IMG/VR virus record: IMGVR_UViG_3300022745_000022
Coordinates: 1 to 20,343 of that record
Length of the DNA stretch: 20,343 nucleotides
From: a virus
Strand: one strand, 5' to 3'
Position numbers and translations under genes: made by a program. This document shows positions 3,936-16,664 of this stretch, in pieces. How positions within the stretch are numbered: the stretch's first letter is position 1; each line of letters starts with the position of its first letter. Below the pieces are notes generated by a model, which was not told the origin of the DNA, searched no databases, and was given only the letters and a program-made list of their open reading frames with translations.

Positions 3936-4629
3936 TGTCTACCCATTTTATAGGTTCATGACCGTTCTCGGTGAGCCACTCGTTCACACGAATGAATTGC
4001 CTGCCACCGGTGAAACGCATCTTGCCCCCGGAGTAATTCTCATACTGCGGATGACAGGAGCGTATGACATTGCAACTGAAGCTCTGTACGATAGGAGTTG
4101 CTGTGTCATCGGCCTGCTTTCCCCATAGCATGAAGGTTACCGGGCGTCCCGAGAGCTGCCCCTTGATGGCTACTGTCTCCATGATCTTCTGGGTGAGTTG
4201 CTGCCATCCCCAATCCCGGTGGGCATTGGCCATACGGTAGGTGGTGGTCAGTACGCTGTTCAGCATGAGTACGCCTTGCTTGGCCCAGTCTGTGAGGTTG
4301 GGATTGGTGCGCACCCCGTATCCGCTCAACTCGAGCTCCTTGAAGATGACACGAAGGGACGGTGGTATGCTGGGAAGCTGACTGCTGAAGGACAGGCCAT
4401 GGGCTTCATTGCCCGGGTATGGGTCCTGGCCAAGGATCACGATCTTGGTGTGGCTGGGCTGACAAAGCCTGAGGGCCGTGAAGATGTCCTTCTTGGCCGG
4501 CCTCAGTTTATCGCCCTGCTGGTCCACCCGTGCCGCGATCTTGGCCATCCAGTCTGACCGGAAGTGGGGAAGCAGGACATCAGCCCATTCCTCTCCCACA
4601 TTGTCGGCCAGGGTCATTTCTTTTTCCAT
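3907..4629 (-). CDS. ung: Uracil-DNA glycosylase, family 1
   Basis: KIVILGQDPY water-activating loop, AHGLSFSS, IPPSLRVIFKEL, WAKQGVLMLNSVLT, FMLWG and catalytic HP. True start may be ATG 4617 (ATGA overlap). Confidence 0.95.
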   Translation of the reverse strand: MEKEMTLADNVGEEWADVLLPHFRSDWMAKIAARVDQQGDKLRPAKKDIFTALRLCQPSHTKIVILGQDPYPGNEAHGLSFSSQLPSIPPSLRVIFKELELSGYGVRTNPNLTDWAKQGVLMLNSVLTTTYRMANAHRDWGWQQLTQKIMETVAIKGQLSGRPVTFMLWGKQADDTATPIVQSFSCNVIRSCHPQYENYSGGKMRFTGGRQFIRVNEWLTENGHEPIKWVDNAETGATPQ

Positions 4630-10457: not shown

Positions 10458-10599
10458 TCGGGGAGACAGGAGTCGAACCTGTAACTCCCCGGTATGAAAG
10501 ACGCTGTGTAGCTTTGCTCTCCGTTTCGGCAGGCTCCCGTCCGTACTCGGTAAGGGGGCTACACCTGCAATTATTCCCCACGGAAAGGAGCGTCTTTCA
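10458..10599 (-). ncRNA. Candidate structured ncRNA ending in a tRNA-like acceptor/T-arm minihelix
   Basis: 11-bp closing helix TGAAAGACGCT/AGCGTCTTTCA, 7-bp GTGTAGC/GCTACAC and inner hairpins, then CGGGGAG-TT-ACAGG-TTCGACT-CCTGT-CTCCCCG-A; no credible ORF in the interval. Confidence 0.65.
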
Positions 10600-11535: not shown

Positions 11536-11553
11536 AGATGTGGATTGAATGTG

Positions 11554-11583
11554 AAAAAGAAGGGAGCTGGGAAACCAGCCCCC
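11554..11583 (-). terminator. Intrinsic terminator-like hairpin
   Basis: GGGGGCTGG-TTTC-CCAGCTCCC followed by TTCTTTTT. Confidence 0.75.
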
Positions 11584-12111: not shown

Positions 12112-12352
12112 AGCGCTTCTTTTTGAGTGTGGAATACCGATGCCACAGTGCCCCGAGCAGTGCCGGGAGTGGGTAGCAACAGTATAGGATATAGATCGTG
12201 GAGAAGGAGACGCTGGTGAACCATCCGTGGATGGAGAATGCAGCGAATGTGGCCAGCCACACCACCCATGACAGGATGATGGGCAGCAGGAAGATGGCGA
12301 AGGTCATTGCCATGTTCAGTTTGTACTCCATGCGGAGCTGTTGTCTGTTCAT
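12035..12352 (-). CDS. Membrane protein (about 2 TM segments)
   Basis: Two hydrophobic stretches; the C-terminal tail overlaps the next gene by 77 nt. Confidence 0.7.
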   Translation of the reverse strand: MNRQQLRMEYKLNMAMTFAIFLLPIILSWVVWLATFAAFSIHGWFTSVSFSTIYILYCCYPLPALLGALWHRYSTLKKKRYEKLHRPYPGEYVPRARYGSVPRVG

Positions 12353-12381
12353 TGCTTTGGGTTTGGTTGGTTATTAATCGG

Positions 12382-12576
12382 TCAGTCTTTGAGCATGCTC
12401 CAGATCAGTACTCCGAGCAGGAATACTGCGACCAGGGCCAGTGGTCCTCACAGAGGTGCGGTCACCCACCACCACGACCAGTCGATCACATGCGTGAGCT
12501 TCAGGATGAGGAAGGTGAGAAAGAGCAGGAATGAGACGCTGGTTGAGACCGCATTGCTGTTATTGCTGTCGCTCAT
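12382..12576 (-). pseudogene. Small phage membrane protein (LKL..VIDWSWWWV.APLW family) interrupted by an in-frame TGA at the conserved Trp
   Basis: Hand translation: MSDSNNSNAVSTSVSFLLFLTFLILKLTHVIDWSWWWVTAPL*GPLALVAVFLLGVLIWSMLKD; TGA at 12448-12450. Confidence 0.75.
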
Positions 12577-12608
12577 GGTTCAAGGTTTGGTTATGAAAGA
12601 TAGTGATT

Positions 12609-13004
12609 CTAGTCTTCAAAGGCAAGTGTGTCATCTACACGCACAACATCTACACGCTCAGAGTAGTAGCCATTACTGGTACCGTACCACCGGATGGTGA
12701 TAGTGTCCTTGAGCGTGCGGATGTTGTAGAATGTCCAGGTGTGGGAGTCATCATACTCATCCTTGGCCGGAAGATCACTGGACGTGTTTTCAGTGGCCGA
12801 TAGAATCTGCTGACCCACTAGGTCTTGTATATTACCTGTGATGTCTTCGATGTAGACGCTCTCACAACAATTCCGGTCATGATACATCTTGTACTGCTCC
12901 ACGACTCCTGAATCCGGTGAGTCCTTCACCTGGAAGATGATCTCGTCATTGGCATCGTTGACTGTAATGCCTACGACATACTTGTTGTCAAGCTGGCTTA
13001 TCAT
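12609..13004 (-). CDS. Conserved phage protein (DUF7448-like)
   Basis: MYHDRNCCESVYIEDITG and TWTFYNIRT...IRWYGTSNGYYSE are motifs of a widespread phage family (family name from recall). Confidence 0.8.
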   Translation of the reverse strand: MISQLDNKYVVGITVNDANDEIIFQVKDSPDSGVVEQYKMYHDRNCCESVYIEDITGNIQDLVGQQILSATENTSSDLPAKDEYDDSHTWTFYNIRTLKDTITIRWYGTSNGYYSERVDVVRVDDTLAFED

Positions 13005-13025
13005 GTTGATTTGGTTTTGAAAGTT

Positions 13026-13055
13026 AAAGAAAGGGAAGGCACTTGCTGCCTCCCC
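13026..13055 (-). terminator. Intrinsic terminator-like hairpin
   Basis: GGGGAGGCA-GCAAG-TGCCTTCCC followed by TTTCTTT. Confidence 0.7.
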
Positions 13056-13390
13056 ATTTATCCCTCTGCACTCAGTTGTAATAGGTTTGCCACCAGAAAC
13101 GCCATATCCTTTCGGGAGCTATTTCCTACCTAACTAGTACAACTGCTCACCCTTGGGAGCTGATTAAGCATATACTCGTCACTCGGTTAATCTGTATAAC
13201 ACAGCATGACATTGCATATCCACTCCGAGACAGATATACTGTCCTGTTATCTTAATCAGGCAGTTTCACATCTTAGAAGACGTTCGCTGAGATGGACTAA
13301 GCCAAATACTCCGATGACCTTCAGACTAAGAATTATATATCTGCGTGAGAATGGTGCATTAACAGGCCCACCTCTCGGTAAGCCACTGAA
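13056..13390 (-). ncRNA. Candidate ~335-nt structured ncRNA
   Basis: No credible ORF; multiple long-range helices (CAGTTGTA/TACAACTG, TAGGT/ACCTA, CAGATATAT/GTATATCTG, CCGAGA/TCTCGG) and a possible pseudoknot CCTGTTA/TAACAGG. Confidence 0.55.
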
Positions 13391-13391
13391 C

Positions 13392-13787
13392 TTACTCTGC
13401 CTCAGCGTCGGCTGGAACCTTGTCCTGCAGCACTTCTGTACGCTTACCGGTAGAGAAACTGATATAGGAATCAGCATTAACCGGGTTGAACATACTGTAC
13501 TGGAAGGTGGTATCCTTCATGTTGGCCTTGTGATTCTTCTCATCCCTGACTTTGATGTCAGGACACAGGGCACTGACCAGGCTTTCCACGACCTTGGCAA
13601 GATTCTCTTCGCGTACGGTGAGGATGATGGGCGCTTCTCCACCGCCAAGCATTCCCATGAGCCCACCGGTTTCCAGGTTGAGCTGCAATTGGAATCCACG
13701 GGCCCATACGGGCTTTTCACCTTCACTGATATCGGTGGCCGGGATCAGGAAGGGGGTCACTATGATGTGCGAGATGTCTTTGAACAT
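13392..13787 (-). CDS. Hypothetical protein, 131 aa (MFKDISHIIVTPF...)
   Basis: Start moved to ATG 13787 after an A/C-rich leader; the longer ORF crosses a terminator. Confidence 0.75.
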   Translation of the reverse strand: MFKDISHIIVTPFLIPATDISEGEKPVWARGFQLQLNLETGGLMGMLGGGEAPIILTVREENLAKVVESLVSALCPDIKVRDEKNHKANMKDTTFQYSMFNPVNADSYISFSTGKRTEVLQDKVPADAEAE

Positions 13788-13808
13788 ATGGGTTTGATTT
13801 AAGGTGAC

Positions 13809-13837
13809 AAAATAAAGGGAACCCCGAAGGGTCCCCT
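13809..13837 (-). terminator. Intrinsic terminator-like hairpin with cUUCGg loop
   Basis: AGGGGACCC-TTCG-GGGTTCCCT followed by TTATTTT. Confidence 0.8.
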
Positions 13838-14120
13838 GTGCCTGATGCATCACAGGCTTTGGTCCGTTGTACATCCGGATTCGCAACGGAACTTCTTGAA
13901 AGGGAGTCCACTGTACCTGACATACGTGGAACTCCCTGTGCCTGAGATACAGGCTTGCTTTCAATGAAGTGAGGAGGCTCGTTTAGCAGCCGACCTCCCC
14001 GTGATTGTGCTGACAGCATTGGGAACGACGAGCGTCTATTTACCAATGAGAGCCTGCATCACAATGTCCGTGCCGGCGCCCAGGGACCTGGTCAAACCAT
14101 TGGTATGGGGGCCGGCAAAT
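13838..14120 (-). ncRNA. Candidate ~280-nt structured ncRNA with a duplicated hairpin module
   Basis: Stems TGCCGGC/GCCGGCA, GCTCGT/ACGAGC, AGGGAGT/ACTCCCT, TCCGTTG/CAACGGA; two AAGCCTG..TCAGGCACAGGG copies 100 nt apart. Confidence 0.45.
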
Positions 14121-14121
14121 A

Positions 14122-14598
14122 TCATTTCCATGAAACATAAACTGCCTTGGCAATACAGGTATATCCTGTGGGGGTAACCGCATCGATGGAATCTTTGTAT
14201 ACTTCATACACTTGAGAAGCCAGGCATATCTCGTCAGCGTTTGATCTGTACACATTCACCCAGCCTCTATTGTTGCCGTCCAGCATGGCCCGCGTGGTAC
14301 TCCAGCCATCCGGTAACGGATGCACATTGTCCGTTTGCTCTTCCAGCATCTCCTCATAGATCTGCTGCCAATACTTGAAGTTGGACATCAACTGTTCACG
14401 ACTGTGGGCTATATTGGCGTCCCACACAGGGAATGCCCACCAGTCTATGGGAAGTAATAGGAAGGCTGAGAATGTCTCCCGTGGCTTCTCCATGACAGAC
14501 ATGCGCTGCTCAAGATTGAGCTTTTGGAAGTGCTTGAGGTATGAAGGCCACCAGTCTTTGGATGAGTACCGGGATTCGAACTGTGCAAAGGTTACCAT
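14122..14598 (-). CDS. Hypothetical protein, 158 aa (C-terminal GWVNVY module)
   Basis: Operon-consistent ORF overlapping the upstream stop. Confidence 0.75.
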   Translation of the reverse strand: MVTFAQFESRYSSKDWWPSYLKHFQKLNLEQRMSVMEKPRETFSAFLLLPIDWWAFPVWDANIAHSREQLMSNFKYWQQIYEEMLEEQTDNVHPLPDGWSTTRAMLDGNNRGWVNVYRSNADEICLASQVYEVYKDSIDAVTPTGYTCIAKAVYVSWK

Positions 14599-15356
14599 TC
14601 TATGGGGATTGAGATGATGAGCGATGGTGCTGTCTCTCTTGTGCGTTCCTTGAATTCAATGGTGGCGTAAGGTGGTCCGAATTCCGTTTTAAACACATTG
14701 ACCCACACTGTCTTCTTTAGTGGTGGTGGTGCCATTTCCAGGTTGTACTCCTCCCTATTGGCACACCTTCCATTATCAGCCCAGCGTTCAAGTGCCAAGA
14801 TTCTCTTTGTGTCCTTATCATAGATCACGCCTATATTGCGGAAAGGTCCTCCGGTCACCACTTCTTCCGGAAGCCGGGCCAATACGACCGCTGGATGTCC
14901 GTTCACGGTTCTTGCGAGCTCACCTGTCAGATGCCGCTCCAGATTGAAGGTGAGATCGAAGACCTCCTGTTCGGGGTACAGCTCTTGATTCCTCAACTTG
15001 TACTGCTCAGTGACCACCTGCCCTAACCACTCCAGCCTTGGCTGTAGTGCCTCTTTGACAATAGTATTATGCAAAGTAGGTGTGGTACTGAAGGAAGAGT
15101 CGTAGATATCATTAGGGGTCTTCCACGCATACGATACCCTACCCACTTCTGAAGGAACAGGAAACGGCTCTGTGGTATCCCATTTGAGCGCATTAGCCAT
15201 ATGACACAAGCCCAGCCAGGCTTTGTAGCCCTCCAGGTGTGCCTTCAGTTTTTCAGCGCTACCGAATGGCGCCTTGATCAATGTTATGACCAGTGCTTCG
15301 TACTTGATGCGCATGGTCTTGAGAATCTCGAAGTTCTTGTCGTTGAATTTGTACAT
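14592..15356 (-). CDS. Hypothetical protein, 254 aa (FNLE..LTGE.ART..G...VWVNVF module)
   Basis: Long ORF; the C-terminal half resembles a common small phage domain. Confidence 0.8.
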   Translation of the reverse strand: MYKFNDKNFEILKTMRIKYEALVITLIKAPFGSAEKLKAHLEGYKAWLGLCHMANALKWDTTEPFPVPSEVGRVSYAWKTPNDIYDSSFSTTPTLHNTIVKEALQPRLEWLGQVVTEQYKLRNQELYPEQEVFDLTFNLERHLTGELARTVNGHPAVVLARLPEEVVTGGPFRNIGVIYDKDTKRILALERWADNGRCANREEYNLEMAPPPLKKTVWVNVFKTEFGPPYATIEFKERTRETAPSLIISIPIEW

Positions 15357-15360
15357 GGTA

Positions 15361-15879
15361 TTAAAGTTTGGTTTGTCCTGTGAATGCTTTGATTACTGTG
15401 AGCAGCTCTTCTTCAGTGGTGATGTAGGGAGCACGCTTGCTGCGTTGGTTACCCCATATCAGAACAATGCCCTGGTGCCTGTTGAAGGTTACTGTGAGAT
15501 CACCATAGGCTTTGTACACCACACTGTCCCTATTGGAGTCAGTGGACTCTAGATACCCGTACGCGTGGTGCAGCATGGATACCAACAATGGAAACTGCGG
15601 TGGCTTGTACATCAAGCGCTCCTGCGTGCGTATATCCGCCTCACGATCGAGCTTATTGAGCATCTCATCTGTGTAGGCACTGTAGGATAGCTCACGCAGG
15701 CGTTTCCAGTCCACTGATTTGTCCACATCACTACCCACTGAGGTACGGATGGAGATCTCAGCAGCATCGTAGACTTCACGGAAAGCGAACCACTTGCGTT
15801 CTGAATGTTGTTGCTGTTTGAATAGGAGTATGGTAGCGAATGTGGCTATGGCCAGCACGATCAGGATAGCTGTGGACAT
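15361..15879 (-). CDS. Hypothetical protein with N-terminal membrane anchor, 172 aa
   Basis: MSTAILIVLAIATFATILLFK; start moved to ATG 15879 because the longer ORF crosses a terminator. Confidence 0.75.
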   Translation of the reverse strand: MSTAILIVLAIATFATILLFKQQQHSERKWFAFREVYDAAEISIRTSVGSDVDKSVDWKRLRELSYSAYTDEMLNKLDREADIRTQERLMYKPPQFPLLVSMLHHAYGYLESTDSNRDSVVYKAYGDLTVTFNRHQGIVLIWGNQRSKRAPYITTEEELLTVIKAFTGQTKL

Positions 15880-15898
15880 GAGTTTGGTTTTGAATGTG

Positions 15899-15933
15899 AA
15901 AAGAATGGGAGAGCCTTCAGATGGGCTCTCCCA
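15899..15933 (-). terminator. Intrinsic terminator-like hairpin
   Basis: TGGGAGAGCC-CATCTGAA-GGCTCTCCCA followed by TTCTTTT. Confidence 0.75.
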
Positions 15934-16105
15934 GCTGCATAACACGTTACCCGTAGCGCGAAGCAGCAGCTTTATCGGTCCATACAGTGAACGTGGCATC
16001 AGTGGTGGATAGAATAGGGAGGCTCAGGGAGCAGGTCCTGAGCACTCCCATTAGCCCGAGGGTTACTCAGGAGGTTAGTACACCTTGTGAGTGTACTGTG
16101 TGAGA

Positions 16106-16378
16106 TCACTCCCACTCAGGAGGTGGGAACAGAAAGATCAAGGTAGCGGCGATAAAGACACCCAGGAATCCTGTGATGACTATCCAGACGCCCACTGAAG
16201 GACCTGTAGCATCAAAACGGAGGTGCTGGGAGATGAATTCAAGGGCATGGTTGTGAAGTTCTCCATGCATCCAGGACCAAGCGGTGGTTCCAAGGATGGT
16301 GAAAGAGAGGACGAACAGGAGCATGAGGAGGCCGAGTAGGAGCCTGTATGATAGGATCCTGAGGGGTGAGTGTGACAT
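16106..16378 (-). CDS. Membrane protein, 90 aa, 2 TM segments
   Basis: Two long hydrophobic stretches; A/C-rich leader. Confidence 0.7.
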   Translation of the reverse strand: MSHSPLRILSYRLLLGLLMLLFVLSFTILGTTAWSWMHGELHNHALEFISQHLRFDATGPSVGVWIVITGFLGVFIAATLIFLFPPPEWE

Positions 16379-16664
16379 ATTGAGGGGTATTTGGTTGTGA
16401 TGGTGACGAGTTGAGGGTGGGAAGTGGGAGCACAGAAGGGTTGAGAGCTGTGAGTGGAGCTGAGGAGGAGCTATATAGTTGCGGATGTCAGAGAGAGTTG
16501 ATACTTAGCGGAATAGAGAGAGGAGTGAGGGGAGAGGGTAGCAGGTCCGCAGGACCACTCACAGCGTGCTCAAGGAGGTGTAAAAATACGTTCTATGGAT
16601 ATATCATTGCAGAGTGAGCGTGTAACTTATTCATTCTCATTCACTTATCTACTCAACCTTGTGC

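Follow-up and report, generated by a model that had tools for sequence, protein, structure and literature searches.

The twister self-cleaving ribozyme was reportedly described by Roth et al. in 2014. Its published auxiliary stems are P0, P3 and P5, an insertion within loop L4 not being among them (PMC5408937, PMC11662667). Twisters tolerate many imperfections as well as long auxiliary stems (PMC11662667), P1 is dispensable in vitro (PMC5408937) and P0 reduced in vitro cleavage (PMC11662667). In the account that PMC6765202 gives of Weinberg et al. 2015, hammerhead, twister, hatchet and pistol ribozymes are found in ribozyme-rich intergenic arrays near phage genes, and processing of polycistronic transcripts has been suggested for bacterial and phage ribozymes (PMC6765202).

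The crAss-like phage phi14:2 expresses abundant early long non-coding RNAs from its gene-free gaps (bioRxiv 10.1101/2020.03.07.982082). One of them, published there as abundant and with its function unassigned, comes from the g005-g006 gap (4031-4502, plus strand, of NC_021806, our locus L087), which holds a tmRNA gene: ARAGORN gives the tag peptide GSSVQKLAMVA and the Rfam tmRNA model scores 46 bits (gathering threshold 47; E = 2.6e-16), while a tmRNA is absent from the features listed in NC_021806 for that segment. In the g004-g005 gap of the same phage (L087 3256-3364), about 100 nt show ~75% identity with unannotated DNA from two unrelated phages of 145 kb, Cellulophaga phi4:1 and phi17:2, and this stretch could represent either a small RNA common to these phages or a mobile element.

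The DNA analysed here, referred to as the window, comprises 20,343 nucleotides, the opening 20.3 kb of an IMG/VR virus record that spans 94,294 bp and is rated complete. We estimate a probability of about 0.85 that the minus strand of a gene-free gap in it encodes, at 13361-13059, a twister-type self-cleaving ribozyme belonging to a large phage family. The RNA is a variant of the known twister class, and not a new kind of RNA.

Genomic setting and non-coding status of the gap

The phage is crAss-like, with 54% G+C, an assignment made because its nearest relatives have Pfam Crass_capsid and CrAss_Ring genes; PHROG matches were obtained for its terminase, portal and major head protein. Genes in the arm where the gap lies are encoded on the minus strand, and their starts lack a Shine-Dalgarno sequence and are preceded by A/C-rich leaders. 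The elements that border the ribozyme are as follows (window coordinates):

13392-13790, minus strand: upstream ORFan gene (132 aa), with a coding signal and its stop codon 30 nt ahead of the predicted cleavage site
13026-13055, minus strand: terminator-like hairpin (13055-13033) plus U tract, from a terminator scan; ensemble probability 0.95
12609-13004, minus strand: downstream DUF7448 gene (131 aa; Pfam PF24240, E = 1.4e-22), with its ATG 57 nt past the ribozyme core

The ORFan protein has zero homologues among 5.8 billion proteins or 1.8 billion representatives, which left no route to synteny through this neighbour. Homologues of the DUF7448 protein begin at its residue 2 and are of equal length, and a 21-nt A/C-rich leader separates the U tract from the ATG at 13004.

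Hairpins of this kind are found elsewhere in the arm. A G+C-rich hairpin, followed by the conserved leader UUCUUUUCACAUUCAAAACCAAA and then an ATG, recurs before at least three minus-strand genes (plus-strand coordinates 11545-11566, 13010-13038 and 15883-15911), with similar hairpins ahead of other genes, and the arrangement could be a terminator plus a translation leader or, alternatively, a phage-specific start signal. Another strong terminator-like hairpin with a U tract (13816-13837, minus strand) ends about 20 nt ahead of the ORFan ATG (13790), and longer calls of that ORF (152-190 aa) are probably wrong because they run through it. The 289-nt gap before the DUF6011 gene, for which a tRNA minihelix had been suggested, gives a weak tRNA-like Rfam match (10458-10523, minus strand; 16 bits, E = 1.5), and ARAGORN detects neither a tRNA nor a tmRNA there.

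The gap under study (13005-13391, 387 nt, minus strand) is non-coding, in agreement with the preliminary description of this DNA, which had noted about 335 nt with no credible ORF. Each of the six frames contains 4-8 stop codons, none of them opens when small ORFs or alternative codes (including TAG=Q or TGA=W) are considered, and codon bias is absent from all six, being clearly positive in both neighbouring genes. Several explanations of the gap were rejected at this level. A decayed gene would have left some codon bias, of which no frame retains a residue; a group I intron splitting the flanking genes is discarded by a DUF7448 protein that is full-length relative to its homologues and by an ORFan that ends at a stop codon of its own and lacks relatives; and a leader specific to DUF7448 is discarded by the short upstream gaps present at most DUF7448 loci, none of the 80 loci matching the gap sequence. 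A hammerhead core was likewise rejected on reading the sequence, since the essential G is missing from CUGAUUA and its spacing could not work. Neither ARAGORN nor Rfam finds a tmRNA in the window or the whole genome.

Sequence searches at this stage returned little. There is no similarity to the gap in deposited phages (BLAST), in the rest of the genome or in the other gene-free gaps of the arm (paralogy), the exact 16-mer GGGATAAATGGGGAGG gives chance coding matches only, a TerL 8-mer search of IMG/VR gave no match, and full-text literature searches with the core words produced nothing relevant. The sole other copy of the locus that was found, in a Logan contig, is 99.97% identical and hence uninformative. 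An Rfam scan, proposed in the preliminary description as a check, gives no twister match either: RF03160 (twister-P1) and its sister models are silent at E <= 10 in both the gap region and the whole genome, and at E <= 1 in the three compact relatives tested, and Rfam overall (gathering threshold, E <= 10) yields only an irrelevant snoRNA and a weak RsmZ-like match. The RNA is thus not a member of the Rfam twister family as currently modelled. Regarding thermodynamics, the minus strand folds more stably than its shuffles (z = -2.35 to -2.7, versus -0.36 for the plus strand); however, of 27 windows of equal size from the arm (the completed portion of the baseline scan), about one in four reaches a comparable z, so that folding energy alone proves nothing, and the z-score, not being distinctive against the arm background, was set aside as evidence.

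The twister-type core and its peripheral arms

Positions 13361-13059 thread onto twister base for base, with the consensus base at every core position. The core is of type P1, that is, U-AA (with the cut predicted after the U), P2, the T2 strand, P4, loop L4 (CCC-AA-GG), P5, P2 and G-A-GGG, and both the order and the identity of its residues match the rice twister sequence printed in bioRxiv 10.1101/2020.06.20.162982 and fit the element definitions of PMC5408937 and PMC11662667. The preliminary description had proposed an RNA of a class that could not be named; its core is that of a twister-type ribozyme. From 5' to 3' along the transcript, the elements are:

13365-13384, minus strand: P0 hairpin, GGCUUACC-GAGA-GGUGGGCC, directly upstream of the ribozyme; ensemble pair probability 0.92, dG -13.7 kcal/mol
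13360-13361, minus strand: predicted cleavage dinucleotide U13361-A13360, followed by A13359 (5' strand of L1); UAA ahead of P2, at the same position as in the rice twister
13355-13358, minus strand: P2 5' strand UGCA, partner 13070-13067; 97-100% paired
13353-13354, minus strand: T2 (PK1) 5' strand CC, predicted partner GG 13152-13151; 98-99% paired, almost invariant
13345-13349, minus strand: P4 5' strand CUCAC, partner GUGAG 13150-13146; covariation
13160-13344, minus strand: insertion of ~185 nt within L4, between the P4 5' strand and CCC
13146-13157, minus strand: L4 core and P4 3' strand, namely CCC (T1), AA, GG (T2) and GUGAG; matches the UCCCAAGC loop of the rice twister
13073-13145, minus strand: P5 arm of 73 nt, with an 8-bp conserved base CAGUUGUA/UACAACUG (13145-13138 with 13080-13073) and a variable tip; covariation
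13059-13070, minus strand: P2 3' strand UGCA (13070-13067), predicted catalytic G13066, A13065, T1 GGG (13064-13062) and P1 3' strand AUA (13061-13059); GAGUGCAGAGGG 93-99% conserved

The compact members of the family share the consensus U-AA-UGCA-CC-AYWM-CUCAC-UU-CCC-AA-GG-GUGAG-(P5)-AG-UGCA-G-A-GGG, with cleavage predicted after the first U. Both adenosines at the cleavage site are 98-99% conserved among 243 family members, and the predicted general base G13066, located directly 3' of P2 and equivalent to G45 of the rice ribozyme, is 97% conserved. P2 occurs in four complementary versions (UGCA/UGCA, UGUA/UACA, UGCG/CGCA and CACA/UGUG). P1 is reduced in this copy to three pairs (UGU 13364-13362 with AUA 13061-13059), and across the family its first three pairs are formed in 72, 65 and 65% of the members, compared with ~32-43% in a shifted register.

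Two pseudoknots complete the family fold. T1 (PK2) would join CCC 13157-13155 to GGG 13064-13062 next to an A-A pair (A13154, A13065), and T2 would join 13354-13353 to 13152-13151. Both assignments rest on analogy with solved twisters: T1 pairs in 98% of the family yet hardly varies, thus lacking covariation support, and T2 shows few variants (U-A, U-G), its pairing being no higher than in the shuffle control, so that covariation says little about either of them. The preliminary description had placed a pseudoknot elsewhere, between loop 13360-13366 and 13243-13249, a pairing that is not supported, as it would occupy the predicted cleavage-site nucleotides.

Around this core, a stable upstream fold (dG <= -8) such as P0 is present in 26% of the family members, versus 12% in a control window. 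The base of P5 is paired at 78-100% over pairs 1-11 and covaries at pairs 9-12, enclosing an interior of 26-298 nt in the family; the helix 13138-13145 with 13073-13080, seen previously as part of a separate rod, is this conserved base, while the other segment assigned to that rod (13128-13132 with 13082-13086) falls in the variable tip.

The insertion in L4 consists of two hairpins. Hairpin A contains S1 (13344-13341 with 13263-13260), which stacks directly on P4, and S2 (13331-13326 with 13276-13271), with an internal loop between both and a variable tip; hairpin B contains S3 (13259-13251 with 13168-13160), which also ends in a variable tip. S1 covaries (GUGG/CCAC, GUAG/CUAC, and GCAG/CUGC, which is unique to this copy), and S3 is 95% paired, with five doubly changed pairs. 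A long insert (>14 nt) at this site of L4 is carried by 55 of the 243 members, 43 of which share the conserved anchor AAGAUGUGAAA. In most insertion-bearing relatives the internal loop (AUAUAAAGA / UGAAA) hardly varies; this copy departs from it and also has a weakened S2 (A.G and U.U).

The complementary segments listed in the preliminary description are all present and form standard pairs, but the two separate domains built from them are peripheral arms of one ribozyme, the former 5' domain being part of the L4 insertion and the former rod being P5. The helices proposed to close the 5' domain are not supported. Pairing of 13373-13378 with 13225-13230 has an ensemble probability of 0, its 5' arm belonging to the P0 hairpin; 13335-13343 with 13231-13239 reaches 0.83 here, but on the 5' side it takes up family helix S1 together with the neighbouring internal loop (conserved in relatives but divergent in this copy), and on the 3' side it falls within a variable tip. 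As for the alternative 9-bp pairing CTGATTAAG/CTTAATCAG (13259-13251 with 13168-13160), the helix itself stood, as it is the conserved and covarying S3, and the conformational switch that it had been taken to indicate did not.

This copy does have a competing fold. Its family-consistent nested fold, hand-mapped and with pseudoknots uncounted, is 11 kcal/mol weaker than an alternative minimum free energy (MFE) structure that sequesters T2, L2, the P4 5' strand and the S1 5' strand, with 13354-13348 pairing to 13226-13220; the gap of 21 kcal/mol obtained on the family alignment described below is too large because MAFFT misaligned S2 by 2 nt. Among the expanded relatives, the family fold is often at or near the unconstrained MFE (median gap ~6 kcal/mol, and 0 for two members). 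The alternative fold of this copy is taken as a caveat, and not as evidence of a switch.

Family conservation and rival readings

The family was reached through a terminase search, which gave relatives whose TerL is ~70% identical and whose DNA upstream of the terminase genes was taken for comparison. With nhmmer, also among the checks proposed at the outset, the element was found in the loci of three of these relatives (L104, L105 and L106), as sharply conserved blocks separated by spacers that vary in length and sequence. The core 20-mer CCCAAGGGTGAGCAGTTGTA is found in >119 viral contigs and in >120 from metagenomes, and the 3' word TACAACTGAGTGCAGAGGG is likewise abundant, the counts of both 19-20-nt core words being lower bounds. 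Fuzzy anchors retrieved at least 243 distinct instances from phage and metagenome contigs, 188 of them compact and 55 with a long insert, and the family is very widespread in phages.

Covariation is present in P4, P2, P5, S1 and S3. P4 is the clearest example, with 19 haplotypes among 183 compact members (such as CUCAC/GUGAG, CCUGA/UCAGG, UCUAC/GUAGA, UCAGC/GCUGA and CUAUC/GAUAG), 17 of which are fully complementary; shuffling the partners lowers the share of paired cells from 99.7% to 81%. For the P5 base and the short P1, pairing is also above shuffled controls. For the expanded form, a MAFFT alignment (A1) of 33 members was evaluated with the full structure, including both pseudoknots: 92% of cells pair, compared with 31-43% once partners are slid. 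Double changes affect 21 pairs, whereas shuffles give 9.3+/-1.7, and in 500 shuffles the observed values were never attained. The preliminary view of the element as a sizeable structured RNA of the phage, non-coding, pseudoknotted and encoded on the minus strand, is upheld.

Side by side, the segment ~12112-16650 of the window, L104 581-4138 and L106 share no genes between an outer-membrane-like gene and a RepL-like gene. Between these two conserved anchor genes only the ribozyme is kept, and it sits ahead of different genes. In addition, tandem copies occur, with two to four per contig in L281, L286, L144, L304 and 22 other locus-strands, some of them head to tail, 0-4 nt apart, and with compact and expanded forms mixed.

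Fold and core residues are conserved, and the ribozyme probably cuts itself. It is unlikely that this copy, or the expanded subgroup, is instead a non-cleaving RNA of twister architecture with a structural or regulatory task, e.g., as an element between the genes that binds a protein or has a stabilising effect. What speaks for such an RNA is the insertion adjoining the active-site loop, together with the deviant internal loop, the weakened S2 and the strong competing fold of this copy; nonetheless, its catalytic and pseudoknot residues all match the consensus, the core is intact in 43 expanded members, and imperfections and long auxiliary stems are tolerated by twisters (PMC11662667). A site for recombination or cassette exchange, conserved mainly as DNA and with the RNA fold being secondary, would account for the only sequence kept where the genes of relatives differ entirely, for downstream genes that fall into 116 clusters and for copies that are often in tandem, but it is made very improbable by the compensatory double substitutions that preserve pairing in P2, P4, P5, S1 and S3, by the strand specificity of the folding and by a G-U-tolerant pairing that a DNA site would not need. 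Finally, the new two-domain class as originally described, with its loop-loop pseudoknot and its conformational switch, is barely credible, for although its complementary segments exist and the MFE here prefers part of its 5' domain, its closing helices and pseudoknot use conserved twister residues or variable tips and its 'switch' helix is constitutively conserved.

Proposed role and comparison with known systems

Under the twister-type ribozyme reading, the early minus-strand transcript would fold and cut itself between U13361 and A13360, 30 nt past the ORFan stop. The upstream ORFan mRNA would then carry a 2',3'-cyclic phosphate just past the P0 hairpin, which would cap its 3' end. The downstream RNA would begin with a 5'-OH and run through the ribozyme body into the hairpin and U tract (13055-13026), extending over the DUF7448 message in case of read-through. 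Since that hairpin with its U tract sits in between, the ribozyme RNA may end there rather than head the DUF7448 message. In either form, the element would uncouple the fates of neighbouring early messages. The genomic context fits transcript processing: the ribozyme is on the same strand as both flanking genes, and 184 of the 243 family instances have a same-strand ORF no more than 400 nt downstream (median 78 nt), these ORFs forming 116 unrelated clusters.

Two further ideas are speculative and rather doubtful: the L4 insertion could be a sensor or protein-binding domain gating the T1/T2 active site, which would make this a natural allosteric twister, or the ~330-nt 5'-OH RNA that cleavage would release could itself be a functional phage non-coding RNA. 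If one of these held, the competing fold of this copy would be its 'off' state.

Similar 'empty' gaps in phage genomes may be misread, given that the Rfam twister models missed this copy and three compact relatives. With its flipped T2 pair, its P5 base of conserved sequence and the large domain housed in the catalytic loop, the family broadens the twister sequence space, and it presents a ribozyme as the sole conserved sequence of a hypervariable early-gene region, ahead of >100 unrelated gene families. This makes the role of self-cleaving RNAs in phages (transcript punctuation, 5'-OH protection or cassette exchange) directly testable.

Compared with the phi14:2 RNAs, the gap is likewise a long gene-free stretch in the early/replication arm of a crAss-like phage, those of phi14:2 being transcribed with genes; however, they have no sequence similarity to the gap, and one of them is a tmRNA, of which this stretch has none. 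With the phage ribozyme arrays, it has in common a candidate self-cleaving RNA between phage genes, tandem copies in relatives and a suggested polycistronic processing, whereas the element occurs once in this genome, in which searches revealed no further ribozyme class.

The closest system is the twister of type P1 (RF03160; PMC5408937, PMC6765202, PMC11662667), from which this RNA differs in several respects. Its T2 strands read CC/GG where GC/GC is canonical, P4 closes with a flipped pair, and CCC is preceded by an additional U; the P5 base is conserved in sequence (CAGUUGUAAUA/UAUUACAACUG), whereas published P5 stems have no consensus; about one fifth of the family, this copy included, carries a 60-200-nt two-hairpin insertion inside L4; and the Rfam models give no match to this copy. 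In spite of these differences, the order of elements is that of type P1 throughout (putative P1, U-AA, P2, 2-nt pseudoknot strand, P4, CCC-AA-GN loop, P4, P5, P2, G-A-GGG and putative P1). P0 and P5 occupy the same places, upstream and on the 3' side of L2, respectively, and both RNAs are found in association with phages. A 3-bp T1, a candidate 2-nt T2, the predicted general-acid A and the predicted general-base G are all in place.
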